Source of the DNA: an uncultured Anaerolineales bacterium
GTDB lineage: Bacteria > Chloroflexota > Anaerolineae > Anaerolineales > VGOW01
NCBI GenBank assembly: GCA_964431175.1
Contig: CAYSIV010000010.1
Coordinates: 2,194-43,402, forward strand
DNA length: 41,209 nucleotides
Direction of reading: 5' to 3'
Shown here: positions 7,748 to 17,740 of the stretch, piece by piece
How the letters are laid out: each line of letters opens with the position of its first letter
How positions within the stretch are numbered: position 1 is the first letter of the stretch
The notes under the pieces: model-generated
Told to the model about the DNA's origin: nothing
The model's input: only the letters and a program-made list of their open reading frames with translations
Databases searched by the model: none
Made by a program: the position numbers and the translations under genes

Positions 7748-10700
7748 TCACTTCCCTTCCGGCCACTGCTCGCAAGTTTTGCGATACGGCGCGCCGGGCA
7801 AGTATTGCGCCCACTCATCTTGAGTCAGATTGCGCCCGGCCAACACACAGGCCCGATCAACCCACCGCTTGACATTGAAGTCCAGGAAAATCACGGCGCC
7901 GGATTCAGTGCCTGCGGCCAACCACTGACCGTCGAGGCTGAACGCGAGGTTGAGCACATTACCCGCCGGGCTGGTCAACGGATCGCCGAGGTGTTGGCGA
8001 GAACCAACATCCCACAGGTTGATCGTGCTATCGTCACCACCGGAGGCCAGCAATCCGTTCGGGCCGAGGGCCAAACTGGTCACACTGCTGGACGAACCCA
8101 CCAGGCTGAGGCCCAGCGATTCGCCGGTCGCTACATCCCACAGGATGATCGTTTTGTCGCGACTGCCAGAAATCAGGGTCTTGCCGTCGGGGCTGAAGAT
8201 CACACTGAGGATGGCGTCTTTATGCCCAACGAACTGGCGGGTGATTGCCCCGGTCGTTACATCAAATAGACTAATCGTTGCGTCCCCACCGCCTTGCGCC
8301 AGAAATTTTCCATCGGGACTGAAAGCCACACTACGCACAACCTGACTCGAGCTGGCTAACTGCGCCCGTGGCTGGCCCGTCGCCACGTCCCATAGGATGA
8401 CCGTGTTGTCCGCACTACCCGAAGCCAATGCCTGACCGTCGGGGCTGAAGACGACACTCCGCACCGAGTCGGTGTGGCCGAGGAACGGCTGGCCAATTTG
8501 CTTCTTTGTCGCTACATCCCACAAAAGGACCGCGCCATCCGAACTGCCTGAAGCCAGCATCTTGCCATCCGGGCTGAAATCCAAAGCATTTACAGCATCT
8601 TTGTGACCGGTGAGTGGTTCGCCGATCAGTTCGCGCTTGGCCACCTGCCAAAAATTGATTGCGCCGTCAGCGTTGCCCGAAGCCAGCACTGTGCCATCGG
8701 GACTGAAATCCACTGCGCGCACGGCGGAGTTCTGGTCGGCCACGGTAACGGCATCGCCGAGCGGCTGTTGCACGACCACATTCCACAGCCGGGTCACTTC
8801 GTCCACACTGCTGGTAGCCAGGGTGCGGCCATCTTTGCTAAACGCCACGCTGGCGACCTCCTGTAGATGCTTGATCTCGTCCAACCGTTGCCCGCTGAAT
8901 ACATCCCATAGCACAACCACTTTGCTATTAATCGCGCTGGTCACCAGCAGTTTGCTATCGGGGCTGAAGGCGCTACTGCTGAAACGGCCTCCATCTTCCT
9001 GGCGCCAGACAACTTGATAATTGCCAGCCGCATTCCCCCACCCCAGGGGGGCTTCTTCACCTCCCGAGGCGATCCTCCGCCCGTCCGACGACCAGGATAC
9101 GCTTCGCACCGTGCCTTTATGATCCTGCAACACCTGCAAGGGTTGTTGGTTGGCAACATCCCATACCCGAAGGGTGTTATCCGCACTGCCGGAAATGAGC
9201 CGGACGCTGTCCGGCGACCAGGCGAGGCTCCGCACCGAGTTCCGGTGCCCTTCAAGCACGCCGAGTTGAGTCAACGTGGCCGCATCCCACAAAACAATTT
9301 TGCCGTTGCCCGTCCCGACAGCTAGTGTCCTACTATCGGGGCTGAAGGCGACAGTTAACAGCGCCGGGCCGCCGGCCACCGATAACTGTTTTTGCTCGCT
9401 ACTGCTCAGGTTCCACACAATGACATGGCCCTGGTCACTACTCGCCGCCAGCCGTTGTCCATCCGGCGACCAAGCGACACTGTAAACCGTCGTCGGGAAT
9501 TTAACCGGGGGTTGTTGGGTGGATGCCCGTTGCCCAACAACATCCCACAATACCACCTGACCATCACGGCTGGCGGCGGCCAACAACTTGCCATCGGGGC
9601 TAAAGGCGAGGCCATTCGCGAAGCTATAGGTGCTCTGGAGAGAAGCGACCAGTTTGGTGGTGGGGCGGGCACTCCGCTCCAATCCGGTGAGCAGACTGTT
9701 TCTCGCCTCCAGCGTGTCGTTGACGTTGTAAGCTTCAATCCCAAGCAGTAAAGCCAACTGCTGTTGCGTATTGAGGTAATTGAATGCCTGAGCTGAGAGT
9801 TGGCGCGAAAAGGCAATTTGCTCCTGGGCCTCGGCGTTGGCCCGGGCCGTGGCGGCCACATCGCGCTCAGCCTGGGCCGTTCCCCGTTGGGCCACGGCTT
9901 GAATGCTGGCGGCCTCGGCAGTGGCTTTTTGGGCAGAGGCCTGGGTGCTGGCGGCCTGGGCAATGTCTTTTTGGGCAACGGCCTGGGTGTTGGCAGCCTG
10001 AGCCGTGTTGGCGAGGGCGGCGTTACGGCTAGCCGTCTGGCTGGCTTGTCGGCCAAAGAAAGCGGCGACGATTGCCAGGAGGAAAGCCACCACGCCCACG
10101 GCGGTGATGACCCGGTTGCCCCGGCGCAGTCGTCTGGCGGCCTCGGTCTGCTCTTCAGCTCTCCGTTTTTCAGCTTCGGCAATACGGCGGGCATCGTCCA
10201 GTTCGCGCTGGCGAATCGCCTCCTTCTGACGCTCGGCGGCTTCCTCTGCATCCTTACTGGCCTGGACGAACTCGGCTTCCAGCGGATCCAAATCGTCGTA
10301 TTGCAAGGCCTCGGCCAGTAGCACACCGCGCCGCAAGGCGTTGGGGTCTTTGCCCAACCTCAGCCATTGCTCGGCGGCGGCGGTCAGCCGGTGGCGCTGG
10401 CGCAGAGTGATGCGTTCCTCGTCCAGCCAATCCACCAGGCGCGGCCAGTTGCGCAACAGCGCCTCGTGCGCTATTTCCATCTGCGCCTCGCTCCCGGACT
10501 CGCCTGGAGTCACACGCACCAGATGAGCGCGACTCAATTTATCCAGCACACCATCAACCCGGTCGTCCGCCTCGGCCTGGTGATAGAGCGCGCCGCGCCG
10601 CACGCGGTTGCTGATCATTTCCGCCCCATCGCCCGGCTTGACCATCTTGAGCAAGACGCGTTTGGCTGTGACCTGCTCTTCAGGGGTCAGGCTGTTGTAA

Positions 10701-11851
10701 AGCTCGTCGGCGGTGTTCGCCAGAGCCTGGCGGCCTCCACCTAGCTTGCGGTAGGCTTCCCAGGTGATCTGGTTGTGATCACGGCGCTCCCACAACTCGA
10801 GCAAAGTAAACTGCAAGAGCGGCAGAGCCGCCGGTTCGCCCAGAAGGTCATTCAGCAAGTCATCCACCACGCCTTCTTCAAACTTCAGGCCGATCATCGC
10901 CGCCGGCGCTTCAATGGCCTCACGCAGTTCGCTGGCGTTGAGCGGCCCCACCCGCACCACCGCTTGCTCGAAGAGTTTTTGGAAGTCGGGCAGGCGGGCC
11001 ACCTGCGCTTCAAATTCGGTCCGCATGGTAAGGATGACGACGTGCCCGGCGTTCATCAGGCCTGCCAGGTTGTCCACGAAGGTTTGCCTCAGCCCATCAT
11101 CGGCGCAGAGGGTGAAGGCTTCTTCAAATCGATTCACCACGATGACAACACCGCCGGTGAAGTGGCTGGCAATCAATTGAGTCAGGTGGCCCGGTCGTTC
11201 GAGAGTTAACTTGACCTGCTCACGAGTCCACTCTGCGGAGTTGGCATTGGGCGGGCGGGTCAATTCGGACAAGTTGGCGAGTGGGTTCGAGCCGGGCACG
11301 ATGGGTGGAAAGTAATGCCAACCGGCGCTATCGGTCAGCGCGCCGCTCTTGAGAGCCGGAATCAACCCTGCCCACACCAGCGACGACTTGCCACTGCCCG
11401 ACGGGCCCAACACGGCCAGCAGAGGAGTCTTCTTTAGTTTGTTGACAATGTCTTTCACTAATCGTGTACGCCCAAAGAACACGCCCTTATTCGCTTCGCC
11501 AAACGCGTCCAGGCCCACATAAGGGCAGAGGGCATCGTCCAGTTCGGGGGCGAGATTTGAGTCGAACTCGGCCAGAGTGGCATCGGGCGGCTCATAGCCG
11601 GGGCGGTAGAGGCGGGTGCTCCAGTAGTCGAGAAAGCCCTGGGCCGCCTGACGGTCACCATCTTCGTCGAGCAGGACGCCGGTGGCCCGCCCCTTCAAGA
11701 TGAAGGCTTCGGCCTCAGCCAGCAGTTCGGGAGATTTGGCCTGCTCGCGCTGGCGCTTGAGCAGGTTGCGATAGGCGGCGCGCATCGCTTCCAACGACGG
11801 AAAGCGATCTACTGGCGCACTATCGGCAGTTTGAGACGGTACGTTGTTCAT
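7748..11851 (-). CDS. STAND-type P-loop NTPase fused to a single TM helix, an Ala/Gln repeat linker and 14 WD40 blades
   Basis: The 1367-aa protein reads as follows:
- An approximately 105-aa helical N-terminal domain.
- 'CPYVGLDAFGEANKGVFFGR' then Walker A 'GPSGSGKSS' (nt 11381-11407).
- 'VVIVVNRFEEAF' in the Walker B position.
- 'LPLLQFTLLELWERR' and 'HEALLRNWPRLVDWL'.
- A coiled coil, then the hydrophobic helix 'VITAVGVVAFLLAIVAAFFG'.
- 14 repeats of the 'FSPDG...LASGS...WD' type. Confidence 0.85.
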   Translation of the reverse strand: MNNVPSQTADSAPVDRFPSLEAMRAAYRNLLKRQREQAKSPELLAEAEAFILKGRATGVLLDEDGDRQAAQGFLDYWSTRLYRPGYEPPDATLAEFDSNLAPELDDALCPYVGLDAFGEANKGVFFGRTRLVKDIVNKLKKTPLLAVLGPSGSGKSSLVWAGLIPALKSGALTDSAGWHYFPPIVPGSNPLANLSELTRPPNANSAEWTREQVKLTLERPGHLTQLIASHFTGGVVIVVNRFEEAFTLCADDGLRQTFVDNLAGLMNAGHVVILTMRTEFEAQVARLPDFQKLFEQAVVRVGPLNASELREAIEAPAAMIGLKFEEGVVDDLLNDLLGEPAALPLLQFTLLELWERRDHNQITWEAYRKLGGGRQALANTADELYNSLTPEEQVTAKRVLLKMVKPGDGAEMISNRVRRGALYHQAEADDRVDGVLDKLSRAHLVRVTPGESGSEAQMEIAHEALLRNWPRLVDWLDEERITLRQRHRLTAAAEQWLRLGKDPNALRRGVLLAEALQYDDLDPLEAEFVQASKDAEEAAERQKEAIRQRELDDARRIAEAEKRRAEEQTEAARRLRRGNRVITAVGVVAFLLAIVAAFFGRQASQTASRNAALANTAQAANTQAVAQKDIAQAASTQASAQKATAEAASIQAVAQRGTAQAERDVAATARANAEAQEQIAFSRQLSAQAFNYLNTQQQLALLLGIEAYNVNDTLEARNSLLTGLERSARPTTKLVASLQSTYSFANGLAFSPDGKLLAAASRDGQVVLWDVVGQRASTQQPPVKFPTTVYSVAWSPDGQRLAASSDQGHVIVWNLSSSEQKQLSVAGGPALLTVAFSPDSRTLAVGTGNGKIVLWDAATLTQLGVLEGHRNSVRSLAWSPDSVRLISGSADNTLRVWDVANQQPLQVLQDHKGTVRSVSWSSDGRRIASGGEEAPLGWGNAAGNYQVVWRQEDGGRFSSSAFSPDSKLLVTSAINSKVVVLWDVFSGQRLDEIKHLQEVASVAFSKDGRTLATSSVDEVTRLWNVVVQQPLGDAVTVADQNSAVRAVDFSPDGTVLASGNADGAINFWQVAKRELIGEPLTGHKDAVNALDFSPDGKMLASGSSDGAVLLWDVATKKQIGQPFLGHTDSVRSVVFSPDGQALASGSADNTVILWDVATGQPRAQLASSSQVVRSVAFSPDGKFLAQGGGDATISLFDVTTGAITRQFVGHKDAILSVIFSPDGKTLISGSRDKTIILWDVATGESLGLSLVGSSSSVTSLALGPNGLLASGGDDSTINLWDVGSRQHLGDPLTSPAGNVLNLAFSLDGQWLAAGTESGAVIFLDFNVKRWVDRACVLAGRNLTQDEWAQYLPGAPYRKTCEQWPEGK

Positions 11852-13014
11852 TCGATCATCCCCAGCACAGAGGCCAGCGGCGCGCCGATTTTGCGAAGCT
11901 CACCGCACAGCGTTTTCAAATCAACATCCACCCGATAAAAACGATCCCCGGCCCGGCGGCGGTAACTGCGGAAGGCGCGTTTGACTTTGACCGGATTGTT
12001 GGAAGCCAGGGTTTCGTCCAGGCCATCGCCTTCTTTTTTGATGGCGACGGCCCATTCGTCGGTCAGGCCGTCGTACAAGGGGGCGGCTTTGGTCTTCAAG
12101 TCGGGCCACGACATTTCAAGTTCTTCCAGGTCTTGATCAATGGCAGTTTCGAGCCGCCGCAGTTCGACGTCAATGTCTTGCCAATGGTCGTGCTCGTCCA
12201 CGAGCGCGCTCAGGGCGCGGTCGAGGTTGCTCAGGGCTTCGATGCCGGTTTTAAATTGGCCGACTTTTTCGGGATCGAGGTCAAGCGAGACTAGATTCTC
12301 ACTTACTTGCGAGAGGGTTTGGACGAGGGCGGGCAGGCGCAGGGCGCGGGCGGTTTGATTCAAAAGGGCATTGATGCGCGCCGGCTGAACAGCCAGGAGA
12401 CGGTTCAACCGCCAGGTTACGCGCTTGAGTTGTTTGTCGTCCAGCTTCTCGATGGCCGTGCTGAGGTCGGCGCGAGCCAGTACCGCTTCTTCAATCCATT
12501 GCACATCCTGCTTGGGTGCGGACGGGCGTTCGGCCACCTGGCGCAGTTCGGCGACGATGCCTTCGAGGGTGAGCATGTAGTCGGTGAGGTTGTCGAGGGC
12601 CATCTCGTCGTCGGGGAAGCGGGTGGCGGCCTGGGTGATGCCGGTGAAGCAGTGGAACTGGAGGCGATGCAGGAGATCGTGCAGGTCTTTGTAGTCGCCC
12701 AGCGTGTCCACCTGATCGCGCGCCGCCGAGAAGTCGGTCCCGAAGGCGATGACGGCGTTGCGCACGTCGGAGGAGCGCTCCATCAGTTCGTGCAGGGCGG
12801 CCAGGCCTTCGCCGACGGCGTCGGGGGCCGCGCCCCCGATGATGACCGTGGCCCCGGCGGCGGCTTGGATGACGTTGCCGCCGGCGGTGATCTTGTCACC
12901 CCCGGTCACGTCGCCACTGCCGACGGTGATTTGGGCGCTTTCGCCGATGGAGACACCGCCCTGCTGGACTGAACCAGAGGGAGGAATGGTATCCGGTTGT
13001 GGGTCTTCGGTCAC
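11848..13014 (-). CDS. Hypothetical protein, Gly-rich repeat N-terminus plus all-helical body; translationally coupled to the STAND NTPase
   Basis: 388 aa with a GTG start. The N-terminus 'GGVSIGESAQITVGSGDVTGGDKITAGGNVIQAAAGATVIIGG' looks beta-helix or bactofilin-like. The remainder looks helical. Its TGA stop overlaps the ATG of the downstream gene (ATGA at 11848-11851). Confidence 0.6.
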   Translation of the reverse strand: MTEDPQPDTIPPSGSVQQGGVSIGESAQITVGSGDVTGGDKITAGGNVIQAAAGATVIIGGAAPDAVGEGLAALHELMERSSDVRNAVIAFGTDFSAARDQVDTLGDYKDLHDLLHRLQFHCFTGITQAATRFPDDEMALDNLTDYMLTLEGIVAELRQVAERPSAPKQDVQWIEEAVLARADLSTAIEKLDDKQLKRVTWRLNRLLAVQPARINALLNQTARALRLPALVQTLSQVSENLVSLDLDPEKVGQFKTGIEALSNLDRALSALVDEHDHWQDIDVELRRLETAIDQDLEELEMSWPDLKTKAAPLYDGLTDEWAVAIKKEGDGLDETLASNNPVKVKRAFRSYRRRAGDRFYRVDVDLKTLCGELRKIGAPLASVLGMIE

Positions 13015-13151: not shown

Positions 13152-13195
13152 CATTTCACCCTCCCACCTCTTGTGGGATTTTTTGTGTGACCGCC

Positions 13196-14257
13196 ATGCT
13201 CGATAAACTCACCGGAATCGAAACCCGCTACGAAGAACTAAACCGTCTGATGTCCGACCCGGCTCAGTTGGATAACTACAGCAAAGTCGCCGAGTTCGCC
13301 AAGGAACGGTCGGCGCTGGAAGAAATTGTGACGAAGTTCCGCGAACACAAAGAGGTGCTCAAGAACCTGGCCGACGCCCGCGCCCTGCTCGACAACGAGG
13401 AAATGAAGGAACTGGCCGAGGCCGAAATCCCCGACCTGGAGAAAAAGCAAGTCGAACTCGAAGCGCAACTTAAGGAGCTTCTCCTGCCCCGCGACCCGCG
13501 CGACCAGAAGAGCGTGATTGTGGAAATTCGAGCCGGGGCCGGTGGCGACGAAGCCGGGTTGTTCGCCGCCGAGCTTTACCGCCTTTACATGCGCTACGCC
13601 GAAGGGCGCGGCTGGAAGGTGTCAATGATGTCGTCGAACGAGAGCGGCATCGGCGGCTTCAAGGAAGTGATCTTTGAAGTGAGCGGCAAGGGCGCGTACT
13701 CGCGGCTCAAATTTGAGTCGGGCGTGCACCGGGTTCAACGGGTGCCCGTCACCGAGTCGTCGGGCCGGATTCACACCTCCACCGCCACCGTGGCCGTGCT
13801 GGCCGAGGTAGATGAAGTGGAAATTGACGTGCCGGACAAAGACGTGAAGATCGACACCTATCGCGCCTCGAGCGCGGGCGGCCAGAACGTGCAGAAGAAC
13901 GCGACCGCAGTGCGCCTCACGCACCTGCCAAGCGGACTCGTGGTGACGTGCGAAGACGAGCGCTCGCAGACCCAAAACCGCCTGCGGGCGATGAGCATTT
14001 TGCGGGCGCGGCTCTATGAAGCTGAAATGGAAAAGCGGCAGATGGCGGCGTCTGTCGAGCGCAAGAGCCAGGTGGGCAGTGGCGACCGGAGCGAGAAGAT
14101 TCGCACCTACAACTTTCCGCAGGGCCGCGTCACCGATCACCGCATCGGCGTCTCGTCTTTCAACCTGCCCGCCGTGATGGACGGCGACATTGACCTGTTT
14201 ATTGACGAACTGGCAACGCGCGAGCAAGCGGAGAAATTGGCGGAGGCGGGGGTATGA
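13196..14257 (+). CDS. prfA: Peptide chain release factor 1
   Basis: The N-terminus 'MLDKLTGIETRYEELNRLMSDP' is typical of RF1. The tripeptide 'PVT' sits in 'RVQRVPVTES', and the GGQ motif in 'SSAGGQNVQKNATAVRLTHLPSG'. I prefer the ATG at 13196 over the GTG at 13187. Confidence 0.97.
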   Translation: MLDKLTGIETRYEELNRLMSDPAQLDNYSKVAEFAKERSALEEIVTKFREHKEVLKNLADARALLDNEEMKELAEAEIPDLEKKQVELEAQLKELLLPRDPRDQKSVIVEIRAGAGGDEAGLFAAELYRLYMRYAEGRGWKVSMMSSNESGIGGFKEVIFEVSGKGAYSRLKFESGVHRVQRVPVTESSGRIHTSTATVAVLAEVDEVEIDVPDKDVKIDTYRASSAGGQNVQKNATAVRLTHLPSGLVVTCEDERSQTQNRLRAMSILRARLYEAEMEKRQMAASVERKSQVGSGDRSEKIRTYNFPQGRVTDHRIGVSSFNLPAVMDGDIDLFIDELATREQAEKLAEAGV

Positions 14258-15522
14258 AGCGAAAAGGGAAAGAATTGAAGGAAAGAAGGGAAACCGACAC
14301 GCTCAGTCTGGAGTCGGTTGAGGGTGCCGCAACAAACGAAGAAAAGCGTGTAGCCGTTTATGACTCTTCCTCAAGGCCCACCATCCCAAGTAGGGTCACT
14401 CCTGAAACGCCTCTAAGCGATCTTAATCTCAACTGGCGTGAAAAAGATTTGCCGGAGCGAGAGCGCACCAAACATGTTCATCGCCTTCACCCTTATCTTG
14501 GTAAATTTATTCCCCAGCTTGCAGAGATTTTTCTACGGAAGTTCCAACCAACCTTAGTTTGTGATCCCTTTTCAGGTTCAGGGACAACTTTAGTCGAGGC
14601 AACGGCTTTCGGCGTCGACTCAGTCGGGTGTGATATATCGGACTTCAATTGCTTGTTGACCCGAGTCAAGACTGCGCGCTACAACCTTCCTTTATTGGAA
14701 CGCGAGATTAAAGACATTATGACAAAGCTGAATCTTCAGCTAAGCGACGATGGACTGTTTGTAAGGAATTTGCCTGAGTCTGTGACCGATAATGATTACT
14801 TGAATGCCTGGCTCCATCCGAATGCTCTCAGGCAGTTGCTTTACTATAGTGAACTAATCCCAAGCTACCAGCATCAGGACTTCCTCAAAGTGGTTTTGTC
14901 ACGCGCAGCAAGGTCAGCAAGATTGACGACACATTTTGACCTGGATTGGCCTAAGAAGCCGCAGACCGAGCCCTATTACTGCTTCAAACATAGCCGCACT
15001 TGCCAGCCAACGGATGATGCTTTGCAGTTTCTTAATCGCTATAGTCTTGATGCCTTGAAACGAGTCAAAGAGTTTGATGTGATCCGGAAGGATGTAGCAA
15101 CCCAGGTTATTTATGGAGATGCGCGAAGCGCGACTTTCTCAAGCGGAATCGACGTTGTAATTACCTCACCGCCCTACGTCGGAATTATTGATTACCATGA
15201 ACAACACCGATACGCTTATGAACTGCTTGGACTGGCCTGGGGCGCAGAAAAGGAAATTGGCCCGGCTTTCAAAGGCAGTTCCAAAGTGGCGCAGAAGACG
15301 TACGTAGAGCAAATATCAGATGTATTTACTAATCTGCGGCGCAGTCTAACGTCAGACGCCGTAGCAGTTATCATAGTCAATGACCGTTACCAACTTTATG
15401 ATGGCTTGCCGGAGCGCTTGGGGTTCAGGTTGGAAGACAGACTGGAACGCCACGTTAATCGGCGCACTGGGATTAGAAGTGGCGAGTTCTTCGAGTCGAT
15501 TTTTGTATGGAGGCGAAGCTAG
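14254..15522 (+). CDS. Amino (N4-cytosine or N6-adenine) DNA methyltransferase
   Basis: 'HRLHPYLGKFIPQL' is followed by the AdoMet motif I 'DPFSGSGTT' (nt 14563-14589). About 190 aa later come 'YGDA' and the catalytic 'VVITSPPYVG' (SPPY at nt 15166-15177). The start ATG overlaps the prfA stop (ATGA). Confidence 0.85.
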   Translation: MKRKGKELKERRETDTLSLESVEGAATNEEKRVAVYDSSSRPTIPSRVTPETPLSDLNLNWREKDLPERERTKHVHRLHPYLGKFIPQLAEIFLRKFQPTLVCDPFSGSGTTLVEATAFGVDSVGCDISDFNCLLTRVKTARYNLPLLEREIKDIMTKLNLQLSDDGLFVRNLPESVTDNDYLNAWLHPNALRQLLYYSELIPSYQHQDFLKVVLSRAARSARLTTHFDLDWPKKPQTEPYYCFKHSRTCQPTDDALQFLNRYSLDALKRVKEFDVIRKDVATQVIYGDARSATFSSGIDVVITSPPYVGIIDYHEQHRYAYELLGLAWGAEKEIGPAFKGSSKVAQKTYVEQISDVFTNLRRSLTSDAVAVIIVNDRYQLYDGLPERLGFRLEDRLERHVNRRTGIRSGEFFESIFVWRRS

Positions 15523-16371
15523 ATGAAAAGTTCGCGCAAATCAAATTTGCCTGACGACCTGAAGCAAGAAATCAGGAGTTATTTATCAAAGAAAGTCAGG
15601 GAGAAATTCGATAAGCGCGAAGAACTTCGCCAAGATTTGGAGGATCAAGACTTGCCATTTCATCGCCGAATATTGCATTTTCTAGGCGAGGATGAGCTAA
15701 AGCGTTTGCTATTTGAAGGTAGTTTTGTTCATGGCTTACACACAAGCATGGGTAACTGGTATCAGTATATGGCAGGTCGCATTGCTGTGCATCATTTTGG
15801 GCTACCTCAAAATCGCCAAGTTACTCAAGTTAAAGTCCGCGGCTATTTATCTGAGGATGTCGTTGCGTGTATAAGCAAAATCATGCTTGACCTTGATGGC
15901 AAGGTGACCGCGCCCAATTATCTGGCTGAAGGCCGGCAGATCAAAGAAGCCATTCTTCGAAGTGACCCTGACGACAAGACCCATGACCGAGAAATCATGG
16001 TGGACTTGTACGTGCCCGAAGCAAAGGATTGGCTACTTGCAGTTGAGATGAAAACACCTAAGACGAACATCTCCATTTTTCGTGGCGAGAAGCGAAAACT
16101 GCTAGAGTTGCGAGCGCTGCTGTTTCAGGAATTTCCCGATAAACCAATTGACAAATTCAAGGTGTGTCTGGCCTTCTCCTACAATCCTTATAAAACACTC
16201 AAAGGCTTTGAGAAAAAGTGGGGCTTTGGAAAAAAACTTATTGACTATGGCAATGATTTACTGATAGGTGAAGACTTCTGGAATTTTATAGGCGGTGAAG
16301 GAACTTATCAGAGTTTGCTGAATGTGGTGAGACAGGTTGGATACACACTGAAAGCCAAAGATTTTAGATGA
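15523..16371 (+). CDS. PD-(D/E)xK nuclease-like protein, probable type II restriction endonuclease (TdeIII-like by recollection)
   Basis: 282 aa, abutting the methyltransferase stop. A D-x13-E-x-K pattern, 'MVDLYVPEAKDWLLAVEMKTPK', lies at nt 16003-16053. The N-terminal 'LPFHRRIL...SFVHGLHTSMGNWYQYMA' and C-terminal 'EDFWNFIGGEGTY' resemble restriction-enzyme families as I remember them. Confidence 0.55.
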   Translation: MKSSRKSNLPDDLKQEIRSYLSKKVREKFDKREELRQDLEDQDLPFHRRILHFLGEDELKRLLFEGSFVHGLHTSMGNWYQYMAGRIAVHHFGLPQNRQVTQVKVRGYLSEDVVACISKIMLDLDGKVTAPNYLAEGRQIKEAILRSDPDDKTHDREIMVDLYVPEAKDWLLAVEMKTPKTNISIFRGEKRKLLELRALLFQEFPDKPIDKFKVCLAFSYNPYKTLKGFEKKWGFGKKLIDYGNDLLIGEDFWNFIGGEGTYQSLLNVVRQVGYTLKAKDFR

Positions 16372-16928
16372 GCCGTAGAGACCGTATGAAAGACGAAGAA
16401 CTGCAAATCCTTATCCTCGAATCTCTGACCGAGTTTTACCAGCGTCGAACGCGGCTTTTGGAAACCCTGAAATTTCGAGACGCTCTCAGGCAGGAGAATC
16501 CATATTTGCTGAGGGTGAATATGGGGCATGGTGGACCAAAGATAGTTGAGCATATCTTGTCTGCTCACCTGAGTCTATCGGATGAACGTTTCTTTGGTGA
16601 AGCTTTCCTAAAGATTGCCAGAGTTGTCTCAAAAGGCTTCGTTTCGCCCAATCAGTTTGGCTATGGTCACTTGTTTAACCAGGCATTTTGGCAGGAGATA
16701 ACAGGCGATCCGGATTTTTATCTGAAAATAATTCGATTGATGGATAATGACACAGTTAGGCAATGCCGTTATGAATTTGACAACGCATGGGCAAATGCAA
16801 ACAATCGTTGCGTTGGAGAGTTTCTCTCCGAATTTTGTAACGAGGACGGAAACATAAATTGGGAACTACTAGTGAAATCGAACAGCGGGTCAGAAAAACC
16901 GCGGAAACAAAAGAAAAAAACAGCATAA
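16368..16928 (+). CDS. Paralog of the preceding nuclease-like protein, lacking the D..ExK core
   Basis: 186 aa. Residues 41-90 align without gaps to residues 41-90 of the 282-aa protein (Q42, acidic 43, P45, aromatic 46, R49, G77, aromatic 80, A84). 'AFWQEITGDPDFY' matches 'DFWNFIGGEGTY'. The roughly 160 aa between these landmarks in the neighbour are absent here. Confidence 0.5.
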   Translation: MSRRDRMKDEELQILILESLTEFYQRRTRLLETLKFRDALRQENPYLLRVNMGHGGPKIVEHILSAHLSLSDERFFGEAFLKIARVVSKGFVSPNQFGYGHLFNQAFWQEITGDPDFYLKIIRLMDNDTVRQCRYEFDNAWANANNRCVGEFLSEFCNEDGNINWELLVKSNSGSEKPRKQKKKTA

Positions 16929-17740
16929 GAATAGCTTTATCTGACGTTGCTGTTTCTACCCTTCCCTCCCGCGAAGCCGCCCTCCTCCTCGCCCACGTCC
17001 TCGGCCAAAGCCGTGAGTGGGTGCTGGCCCATCCCGAAGCCGAACTGACGCCCGAACAGAGCGGACGCTTTGCCAAACTGATTGAACAAGCTGAACGTGG
17101 CACGCCCCTGCCTTACCTGCTAGGCCAGTGGGAATTCTTCGGTCTCAGCTTCAAAGTCACGCCCGACGTTCTCATTCCACGACCGGAAACCGAATTGCTG
17201 GTTGAAAAAGCGTTGGGGAAAACCCCAAAACCCAAAACCCCAAATTCCAAAATCGCTGACGTTGGAACCGGAAGTGGCATCATTGCCATCACGCTCGCAG
17301 TCAAACTTCCGCAAGCTCATATCATCGCCACCGACGTTTCCGTCGCCGCGCTGGAAGTAGCGCGGGCAAATGCAGTTGCTCACAGCGTGGCCGACCGGGT
17401 AAAATTCATTCATGGCGATCTGCTGGAAAGCGCGGGCAAAGTGAACCTGATTTGCGCCAACCTGCCCTACATCTCAACCGTCGAACTCACAACCCTGCCG
17501 GTCGCCAAACACGAGCCGACTCTGGCCCTCGACGGCGGCGAGGACGGTTTGCGGCTCATTGAGCGATTGCTGGCAACCGCAGGCGATCATCTTCTGCCGG
17601 ACGGCGCACTGCTGGCCGAGATTGCGGCCACACAAGGCGAAGCGGCGGCATCCCTGGCCCACCACTACTTCCCCTCAGCGCGAGTGGAAGTCTATAAGGA
17701 TTTGGCCGGACTAGATAGAGTGCTGGAAATTGAAATTTGA
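16859..17740 (+). CDS. prmC: Release-factor glutamine N5-methyltransferase (HemK/PrmC)
   Basis: 'PLPYLLGQWEFFGL', 'VLIPRPETE', motif I 'DVGTGSGIIAI' and the catalytic 'ANLPYI' (an NPPY variant) are present. The only in-frame start upstream of the conserved N-terminus is the ATG at 16859. It lies inside the island and overlaps the previous ORF by 70 nt. Confidence 0.88.
   Translation: MGTTSEIEQRVRKTAETKEKNSIRIALSDVAVSTLPSREAALLLAHVLGQSREWVLAHPEAELTPEQSGRFAKLIEQAERGTPLPYLLGQWEFFGLSFKVTPDVLIPRPETELLVEKALGKTPKPKTPNSKIADVGTGSGIIAITLAVKLPQAHIIATDVSVAALEVARANAVAHSVADRVKFIHGDLLESAGKVNLICANLPYISTVELTTLPVAKHEPTLALDGGEDGLRLIERLLATAGDHLLPDGALLAEIAATQGEAAASLAHHYFPSARVEVYKDLAGLDRVLEIEI
17215..17254. repeat. 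CCCAAAA-type periodic tract inside prmC
   Basis: GGGGAAAACCCCAAAACCCAAAACCCCAAATTCCAAAATC encodes 'GKTPKPKTPNSKI' just before motif I. An inverted relative lies at 17775-17798. Confidence 0.8.

Follow-up and report, generated by a model that had tools for sequence, protein, structure and literature searches.

A predicted type II restriction-modification operon with a core-less EcoO109I/PmeII-family protein at the prfA-prmC junction of an uncultured Anaerolineales bacterium

In the 41,209-nucleotide stretch of contig CAYSIV010000010.1 analyzed here (the window), which comes from an uncultured Anaerolineales bacterium, the genes prfA and prmC are separated by an island of three co-oriented plus-strand open reading frames (ORFs) at 14254-16928. 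This island is most probably a type II restriction-modification operon, made up of a methyltransferase gene (ORF1) and an endonuclease gene (ORF2), accompanied by a core-less relative of another restriction enzyme (ORF3) and vertically inherited since an old insertion. More specifically, ORF1 would methylate a short palindromic DNA site and ORF2 would cleave unmethylated copies of that site. The pair would have entered the prfA-prmC junction in the ancestor of a sub-clade and descended vertically since, and the cassette would probably be expressed by read-through from prfA. ORF3 would descend from a second, EcoO109I/PmeII (GGWCC-type) restriction enzyme whose beta-sheet catalytic core was lost in an in-frame deletion while the helical N- and C-terminal parts remained, and ORF3 itself would be unable to cleave DNA. 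The AT-rich block in this operon would thus be a conventional restriction-modification unit whose low GC content does not signify a recent arrival. The core-less endonuclease derivative is its sole feature of broader interest, and the independent recurrence of such forms its sole unusual aspect.

The ORF1-ORF2 pair and its setting

ORF1 scores above the cut-off of the PF01555 methyltransferase family (7e-11; 42.9 bits against 26.7) and matches the PADLOC type II model MTase_II PDLC03249 (1.3e-91). The first-pass annotation had recognized an SPPY amino-methyltransferase in the island, and this motif IV is found at residues 305-308 of ORF1 (15166-15177). Motif I, DPFSGSGTT, occupies residues 104-112 (14563-14589) and thus lies ahead of motif IV, so the motif order is permuted relative to that of the beta-class PF01555 enzymes. 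An SPPY motif IV is associated with N4-cytosine methylation, which suggests that ORF1 modifies N4-cytosine; transformation of these organisms would then meet a probable restriction barrier of the N4-methylcytosine (m4C) type. At least 8000 homologues of ORF1 exist, the best 120 of which are 58-77% identical to it, and those named among the best 120 come from Chloroflexota, Dehalococcoidia and Acidobacteria-type (Blastocatellia, Pyrinomonadaceae) metagenome-assembled genomes. The plasmid collection yielded only methyltransferases about 26-29% identical to ORF1 and the phage collection no homologue.

Because ORF1 adjoins prfA and prmC, its methyltransferase activity might alternatively be directed at protein or RNA and serve translation termination. 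Some of its homologues are labelled 'tRNA G10 N-methylase Trm11' by the Joint Genome Institute (JGI), and ORF1 itself shows weak PF01170 and TIGR01177 matches across the S-adenosylmethionine (SAM)-binding motif. However, its NCBIfam matches fall far under their cut-offs (25.9 bits against 316), while the PADLOC DNA methyltransferase model is matched strongly and PF01555 above its cut-off, and ORF1-type methyltransferases are paired with PF09520 endonucleases at loci unrelated to translation. ORF1 also matches neither PrmC_N nor TIGR03534, whereas the downstream gene matches both (1.1e-76) and is the genuine prmC. This alternative is already disfavoured and appears extremely improbable.

ORF2 is covered over its whole length by PF09520 (RE_TdeIII; 5.7e-43, 147.7 bits, cut-off 27.2) and also matches the PADLOC REase_II model. 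The D-x13-E-x-K nuclease motif that had been read from the translation corresponds to the PD-ExK residues D161 (16003-16005), E175 (16045-16047) and K177 (16051-16053), all three of which are invariant in family alignments A4 and A6. A model of ORF2 built with AlphaFold2 (AF2) has a predicted local distance difference test (pLDDT) score of 81.8, and a fold search with it returned only weak generic PD-(D/E)XK matches (Can2, Bse634I, Cfr10I) and no close structure. Close relatives are few, with only 8 among 5.8 billion proteins, and ORF2 is 24-34% identical even to other environmental PF09520 enzymes; no homologue was found in the plasmid and phage collections. Searches of PDB sequences with ORF2, ORF3 and the PmeII-family profile produced nothing real, and the matches to SAKe designer proteins among them were rejected as repeat artefacts.

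The pairing of an ORF1-type methyltransferase with a PF09520 endonuclease recurs at unrelated loci. At L084 and L085 the pair is located after murB, with a methyltransferase 75% identical to ORF1 and an endonuclease split into 59 and 207 aa; at L177 and L180 the methyltransferases share 69-73% identity with ORF1, and behind each comes a PF09520 gene whose product is only 24-28% identical to ORF2. Because of this recurrence, ORF1 and ORF2 are predicted to be a cognate pair. They comprise a methyltransferase with motifs I and IV and an adjacent endonuclease gene with an intact nuclease motif, and the two travel jointly, as is characteristic of type II systems. ORF1-ORF2 is thus a predicted ordinary chromosomal type II restriction-modification pair and a member of a large catalogued family. 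The first-pass annotation had left the choice between a restriction-modification system with an unusual third component and a novel defence cassette. The former description stands, and the latter is ruled out, as many loci carry members of the large family to which this methyltransferase-endonuclease pair belongs.

Among known systems, TdeIII of Treponema denticola (M.TdeIII/TdeIII, TDE0909/TDE0911, PF09520), the recognition site of which is presumably GGNCC, as in its Pfam/REBASE entry, resembles the island in having separate methyltransferase and PD-ExK endonuclease genes in tandem. ORF2 matches its family over the full length with D, E and K conserved. Unlike that system, the island combines an endonuclease of low identity to other members and few close relatives with a methyltransferase in which motif I precedes motif IV. 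Experiments support TdeIII as a restriction barrier in T. denticola (PMC12878829), and TdeIII genes have been found to have moved between species (PMC3467074).

The composition and boundaries of the island largely agree with the first description of AT-richer DNA separating prfA and prmC. The GC content of the island is 45.7% versus 59.6% in the rest of the window, and per-gene values are 48, 44 and 44% for ORF1, ORF2 and ORF3, 61% for prfA and 58% for prmC. The low-GC island is therefore real, but the flanks, for which spot counts had suggested about 65%, lie at about 60% once the rest of the window and the neighboring genes are computed, and the island ends at 16928 rather than at 16950. GC at third codon positions (GC3) is 0.45-0.50 in the island genes, 0.78 in prfA, 0.60 in prmC and 0.73-0.75 in the next two genes. 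Both ATGA overlaps (14254-14257 and 16368-16371) and the abutment at 15522/15523 are present in the sequence as described.

Such junctions would allow the island to be expressed from the prfA operon. Because of the stop/start overlap, the GGAGG motifs 7-8 nucleotides (nt) ahead of the ORF1 and ORF2 start codons (Table 1) and the lack of any terminator-like site in a scan from prfA to late ORF3, read-through from prfA, and hence the co-transcription proposed at first, is probable. The promoter-like site within ORF3 is a consensus match only, in a region that is coding and conserved for protein reasons. No ORF of the island matches a helix-turn-helix (HTH) family in Pfam, NCBIfam or PADLOC, as a controller (C-protein) gene would.

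No integrase or transposase ORF occurs in the island, the only substantial ORFs of which are the methyltransferase and the two endonuclease-family genes, and a search for flanking direct or inverted repeats gave chance-level matches only; both results agree with the earlier reading. A Rfam scan of the whole window at gathering score returned no match (a dedicated tRNA finder was not used), and the insertion site falls between protein genes. Having neither a mobility gene nor bounding repeats, the island does not qualify as a mobile genomic island.

Table 1. Coordinates of genes and sequence motifs at the prfA-prmC locus of the window
Feature	Position	Strand	Description
prfA (release factor 1, RF1)	13187-14257	+	PCRF and RF-1 domains (PF03462 3e-73, PF00472 4e-41); ATG 13196 is the likely start; TGA stop overlaps the ORF1 ATG
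GGAGG Shine-Dalgarno-like motif	14242-14246	+	In the prfA 3' end, 7 nt ahead of the ORF1 ATG
ORF1	14254-15522	+	422 aa; predicted type II DNA amino-methyltransferase
GGAGG Shine-Dalgarno-like motif	15510-15514	+	8 nt ahead of the ORF2 ATG
ORF2	15523-16371	+	282 aa; predicted PF09520 (TdeIII-family) type II restriction endonuclease
ORF3	16368-16928	+	186 aa (180 aa from the conserved start 16386); EcoO109I/PmeII-family, core-less
Promoter-like site TTGACA-17-AACAAT	16777-16805	+	Within ORF3, upstream of the prmC start; consensus match only
prmC (RF1/RF2 N5-glutamine methyltransferase)	16859-17740	+	TIGR03534 1.1e-76; PrmC_N; TTG 16859 is the probable start

Occupancy of the junction and age of the insertion

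Relatives were gathered by an RF1 scan with one genome per species, which returned Anaerolineales and other Chloroflexota and in which the closest sequence was 71% identical. In most of the fetched Anaerolineales loci that hold both genes, prmC directly follows prfA, and the island does indeed interrupt a junction that is intact in the majority, as had been supposed. The comparison across relatives proposed in the first-pass annotation separates a majority without the cassette from four clustered lineages that carry it, namely the window and three others (L001-L003, L089 and L091). The prfA product (RF1) is 77-86% identical among these four and at most 73% identical between carriers and non-carriers.

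The carriers differ in the state of the cassette. Relative to the window, L001-L003 are 86% identical in prfA and 77, 73 and 65% identical in ORF1, ORF2 and ORF3, with the methyltransferase intact and tryptophan 79 of ORF2 replaced by a stop codon. L089 is 72, 82 and 36% identical in the same three ORFs, carries the same deletion in ORF3 and has a spacer of about 200 nt between prfA and the methyltransferase gene; the stop/start coupling is present in the window and L001. L091 (3484-4983) has an endonuclease 80% identical to ORF2, a methyltransferase only 42% identical to ORF1 and no ORF3, and the high identity of the adjacent endonuclease suggests that its methyltransferase gene was replaced within the island.

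Synonymous divergence (dS) between the window and L001 ranges from about 0.9 to saturation, in island and flanking genes alike. Because four related lineages carry the cassette at the same site and synonymous sites are saturated, the insertion is old rather than recent. The GC content of the island is low in every carrier, and the module lies 8-15 GC points under its host at every locus examined. As this difference is also found at other loci, low GC is a property of the module and not a sign of recency. From these comparisons it is concluded that one old insertion probably occurred in the ancestor of a small Anaerolineales sub-clade and was followed by vertical inheritance with later remodeling.

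The remodeling includes what appears to be the decay usual for such systems, in which some lineages lose endonuclease function and retain the methyltransferase. The nonsense codon of L001-L003 beside an intact methyltransferase and the split endonuclease of L084/L085 recall orphan methyltransferases and decaying restriction-modification systems, whereas the window's own methyltransferase and endonuclease both look intact. Separately, a JGI contig of 5731 bp (P0400/P0401) encodes a protein identical to ORF2 across residues 1-219, where it ends, and ORF3 is reported on a JGI contig of that length, probably the same one. P0400 may represent an endonuclease allele truncated in a near-identical strain.

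The location of the cassette between two functionally linked genes, its stop/start coupling in the window and L001 and its persistence in four lineages could also indicate a selfish element that recently targeted an essential operon and is shielded by its position from silencing or loss. Such an account is very unlikely. The cassette has no mobility gene or repeat and is an old insertion with saturated dS, it is separated from prfA by the spacer in L089, and the same module is found after murB and at other loci. Nor is it borne out that the operon makes the cassette hard to silence or lose, as the first-pass annotation had proposed. The endonuclease bears a nonsense codon in L001 and possibly a truncation in a near-identical strain, L091 is without ORF3 and has the methyltransferase of 42% identity, and in other lineages the junction holds unrelated genes (an agmatinase-like gene, a small ORF pair and membrane-protein genes). 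Because unrelated genes occupy it elsewhere, the junction is a permissive site and not a specific target. The prfA-prmC position is thus a curiosity and not a mechanism, and no paper in the literature collection searched links prfA, prmC and restriction-modification.

The junction is variably occupied in L015, L043, L017, L020, L030, L059 and L021, all of the occupants being at host GC. They include an agmatinase-like gene of 312 aa, an agmatinase-like gene with a pair of small ORFs (86 and about 130 aa) in front of it that look VapBC-like, and the gene for a 710-aa membrane protein together with a 285-aa membrane-protein gene.

ORF3, a core-less member of the EcoO109I/PmeII family

ORF3 matches PF14511 (RE_EcoO109I) well above the cut-off (3.6e-21; 76.3 bits against 22.5), in two stretches that cover the ends of the profile only. 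Its homologues are mostly 238-275 aa long, and the few that carry NCBI names are PmeII-family restriction endonucleases. ORF3 is without some 65-70 central residues that hold the family's nearly invariant D, E and K (alignments A1, A2, A3 and A8), with the deletion junction at about residues 92-99 (16641-16664), and it retains the family motifs NPYL, SDE..FG and FW.EITGDPDFYLK. It is thus a PF14511 member by the family hidden Markov model (HMM) and lacks the PD-(D/E)XK catalytic core; because the segment with the family's D, E and K is wholly missing, ORF3 is not an endonuclease. Its AF2 model is compact and all-helical with no beta-sheet (pLDDT 86.9; predicted template modelling score, pTM, 0.78), and the top and sole credible Foldseek match of this model is EcoO109I 1WTE (probability 0.99; query-based template modelling score, TMq, 0.54). 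The homologues begin at a methionine corresponding to 16386, and ORF3 may accordingly use a start other than the ATGA overlap at 16368.

The third ORF had been described as related to the nuclease. ORF3 instead derives from another restriction-enzyme family: hhalign comparison of ORF2 and ORF3 gives a non-significant probability of 0.6-2.6%, and the only link between them consists of weak Pfam cross-matches in N-terminal helices. EcoO109I (RGGNCCY; PDB 1WTD/1WTE), AvaII and PmeII (GGWCC), all of PF14511, resemble ORF3 at both ends of the profile and, in the case of 1WTE, in structure, but they possess the segment with the conserved D, E and K. PF14511 enzymes are usually partnered by beta-class PF01555 enzymes (56 of 104 neighboring ORFs), with C5 methyltransferases accounting for 8, whereas ORF3 has no such partner. 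The helical extensions at the N and C termini of AvaII and EcoO109I intertwine to build the dimer interface, and one long helix reaches into the minor groove (PMC7337904). PmeII originates from P. mendocina, the DNA of which carries modification at GGWCC, and this motif agrees with the PmeII site (bioRxiv 10.1101/2021.02.10.430591).

The presence of two endonuclease-like genes, one of them non-catalytic, beside a single methyltransferase also recalls the heterodimeric type IIT and nicking enzymes (BbvCI; Nt.BspD6I with its small subunit). The likeness goes no further, as the families of ORF2 and ORF3 are without significant profile similarity and ORF2-type enzymes occur without ORF3. More specifically, ORF3 is absent from L091, L084, L177 and L180. 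Because ORF2-type enzymes are found there without it, ORF3 is dispensable for the pair and is not predicted to be an obligatory subunit.

The sequence of ORF3 has nonetheless been constrained. Its identical deletion is shared by the window, L001 and L089, and its non-synonymous divergence (dN) is 0.25-0.57 while dS exceeds 1; the corresponding dN of ORF1 and ORF2 is 0.12-0.21, so ORF3 changes 1.5-4.5 times faster at non-synonymous sites. When its DNA was shuffled, only 5e-5 of the shuffles remained free of stops over 186 codons. ORF3 is thus open, well-folding and under weaker but real purifying selection. The best guess is that a second endonuclease left it behind as a non-catalytic remnant, which has been retained and possibly still dimerizes or binds DNA.

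Two other accounts of ORF3 bracket this one. It could be no more than a pseudogene in decay, in which deletion disarmed an endonuclease and no present function is left. This would suit the loss of the catalytic core, the absence from L091, the fast divergence along the L089 branch (36-37% identity) and the location of stand-alone short forms amid housekeeping genes. Pure decay is rather unlikely, however, given a frame still open with the same deletion in three lineages at saturated synonymous sites, the small chance (about 5e-5) of 186 stop-free codons at this base composition, the excess of dS over dN and the compact, confidently predicted fold.

Conversely, ORF3 could be a working third component, a non-catalytic dimerization or DNA-binding module taken from a GGWCC-type endonuclease, that would regulate or restrain restriction or would poison incoming PmeII/AvaII-type endonucleases by forming dead heterodimers. 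The open frame with dN well under dS in three lineages, the confident helical model and the role of the helical extensions in dimerization and minor-groove contact in AvaII and EcoO109I (PMC7337904) all favor such a role, as does the repeated derivation of short forms from differing full-length enzymes. This account too is unlikely. ORF2-type enzymes do not need ORF3 (L091, L084, L177, L180), ORF3-like proteins have no constant neighbor across contexts, ORF3 evolves faster at non-synonymous sites than ORF1 and ORF2, and neither an HTH nor any other regulator domain was recognized in it with Pfam, NCBIfam or PADLOC. The apparent recurrence of short forms is also partly a matter of ascertainment, since only in-frame deletions show as single ORFs. 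That ORF3 acts on restriction itself is accordingly regarded as doubtful, and the preferred view of it remains that of a retained remnant.

Core-less forms are found beyond this locus. A full HMMER scan of 1.84 billion representatives identified at least 18 clusters (50% identity) of proteins 166-198 aa long whose alignment to ORF3 runs over the entire length; among the PF14511-family representatives collected, about 15% are 165-200 aa long. Because the nearest relatives of the short forms are different full-length enzymes, the core appears to have been lost repeatedly. In the plasmid collection ORF3 matched only full-length PmeII-family genes, on small enterobacterial plasmids, and viral contigs held one full-length PmeII-like locus and no short forms. 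If functional, the core-less forms would constitute a small new class of restriction-enzyme-derived proteins. It is quite unlikely, though conceivable, that core-less EcoO109I/PmeII-like proteins are a recurrent functional class, retained as non-cleaving site binders or dominant-negative partners, and that they blunt GGWCC-type endonucleases as domesticated anti-restriction or anti-addiction factors, one of which would here have become fixed in an essential operon.

Individual loci illustrate the range of contexts. An independent core-less PmeII-like protein of 178 aa (P0112; L172 2303-5113) is encoded next to genes of the EVE-domain and radical SAM kinds, on contigs one of which is labelled Dehalococcoidales by NCBI. 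Another, of 189 aa (P0251; L182 4755-5454), lies amid shikimate-pathway (aromatic amino-acid) genes, with no methyltransferase or endonuclease near it in L182. At L101 (3133-5563) a beta-class PF01555 methyltransferase is followed in turn by two endonucleases, the first PmeII-like and of full length (248 aa), the second TdeIII-like (268 aa); this arrangement of one methyltransferase with endonucleases of both families of the window is a plausible ancestral layout.

Recognition-site statistics and flanking features

Avoidance of short palindromes was considered as a means of assigning the specificity of the cassette and was rejected, since depletion of GG(N)CC-type sites is general in Anaerolineales. 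RGGNCCY occurs 6 times in the window against an expectation of 34-52. The observed/expected ratio of GGNCC is 0.62 in the window and L001, and its median is 0.55 in 63 non-carrier loci. GGSCC shows no depletion (0.73-0.85), and GGWCC is low (0.19-0.25) yet inside the lower tail of the non-carriers.

These statistics bear on the favoured reading of the island as an anciently acquired, vertically inherited restriction-modification operon with a core-less companion, and together with several other points they weigh against it. GGNCC-type sites are under-represented across Anaerolineales with or without the cassette, so that avoidance singled out no site. The inheritance is deduced from four lineages and their prfA identities rather than from a genome phylogeny, and the mere 42% identity of the L091 methyltransferase to ORF1 points to recombination within the island. 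The dN/dS values between the window and L001 (0.10-0.16 for ORF1 and ORF2, about 0.09 for ORF3) are rough because dS is saturated. Finally, the short forms lie in three different contexts with no shared partner, which fits a remnant as well as it fits a function.

Outside the island (that is, outside 14254-16928) the most depleted short palindrome of the window is GCWGC, a TseI/ApeKI-type site, with 13 observed against about 118 expected. CGGCCG (8/62), GGCGCC (15/53), GCCGGC (16/66) and GGGCCC (2/23) are likewise strongly depleted there (observed/expected). The GCWGC depletion is absent from other carriers and is therefore due to some other system than the cassette; the source organism probably has further restriction systems elsewhere.

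The island also appears to supply the start of prmC. The TTG start of prmC in relatives (L001 8552, L089 4124) corresponds to TTA at 16937-16939 in the window (comparison region 16931-16939). Ahead of the conserved PrmC N-domain only one canonical start codon is in frame. This codon, TTG 16859, is preceded by GAGGA and lies 24 codons upstream; from it prmC overlaps ORF3 by 70 nt and reads the last part of ORF3 in another frame. The prmC gene thus probably starts at TTG 16859, and because this start is inside ORF3, prmC would rely on island sequence for its initiation signals.

Upstream of the cassette, the segment 13146-13196 contains a TATAAT box followed by a terminator-like hairpin, TCCCACCTCTTGTGGGA, with a T-run (13162-13184), directly ahead of the prfA start (GTG 13187 or ATG 13196); this hairpin matches no Rfam family. 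Divergently oriented just upstream of prfA is a gene pair on the minus strand (7748-13014), in which a 1367-aa nSTAND1 NTPase with WD40 propellers (PF20703 3e-111) shares a stop/start overlap with a 388-aa protein. The latter has no Pfam match, and the pair may be a conflict system.

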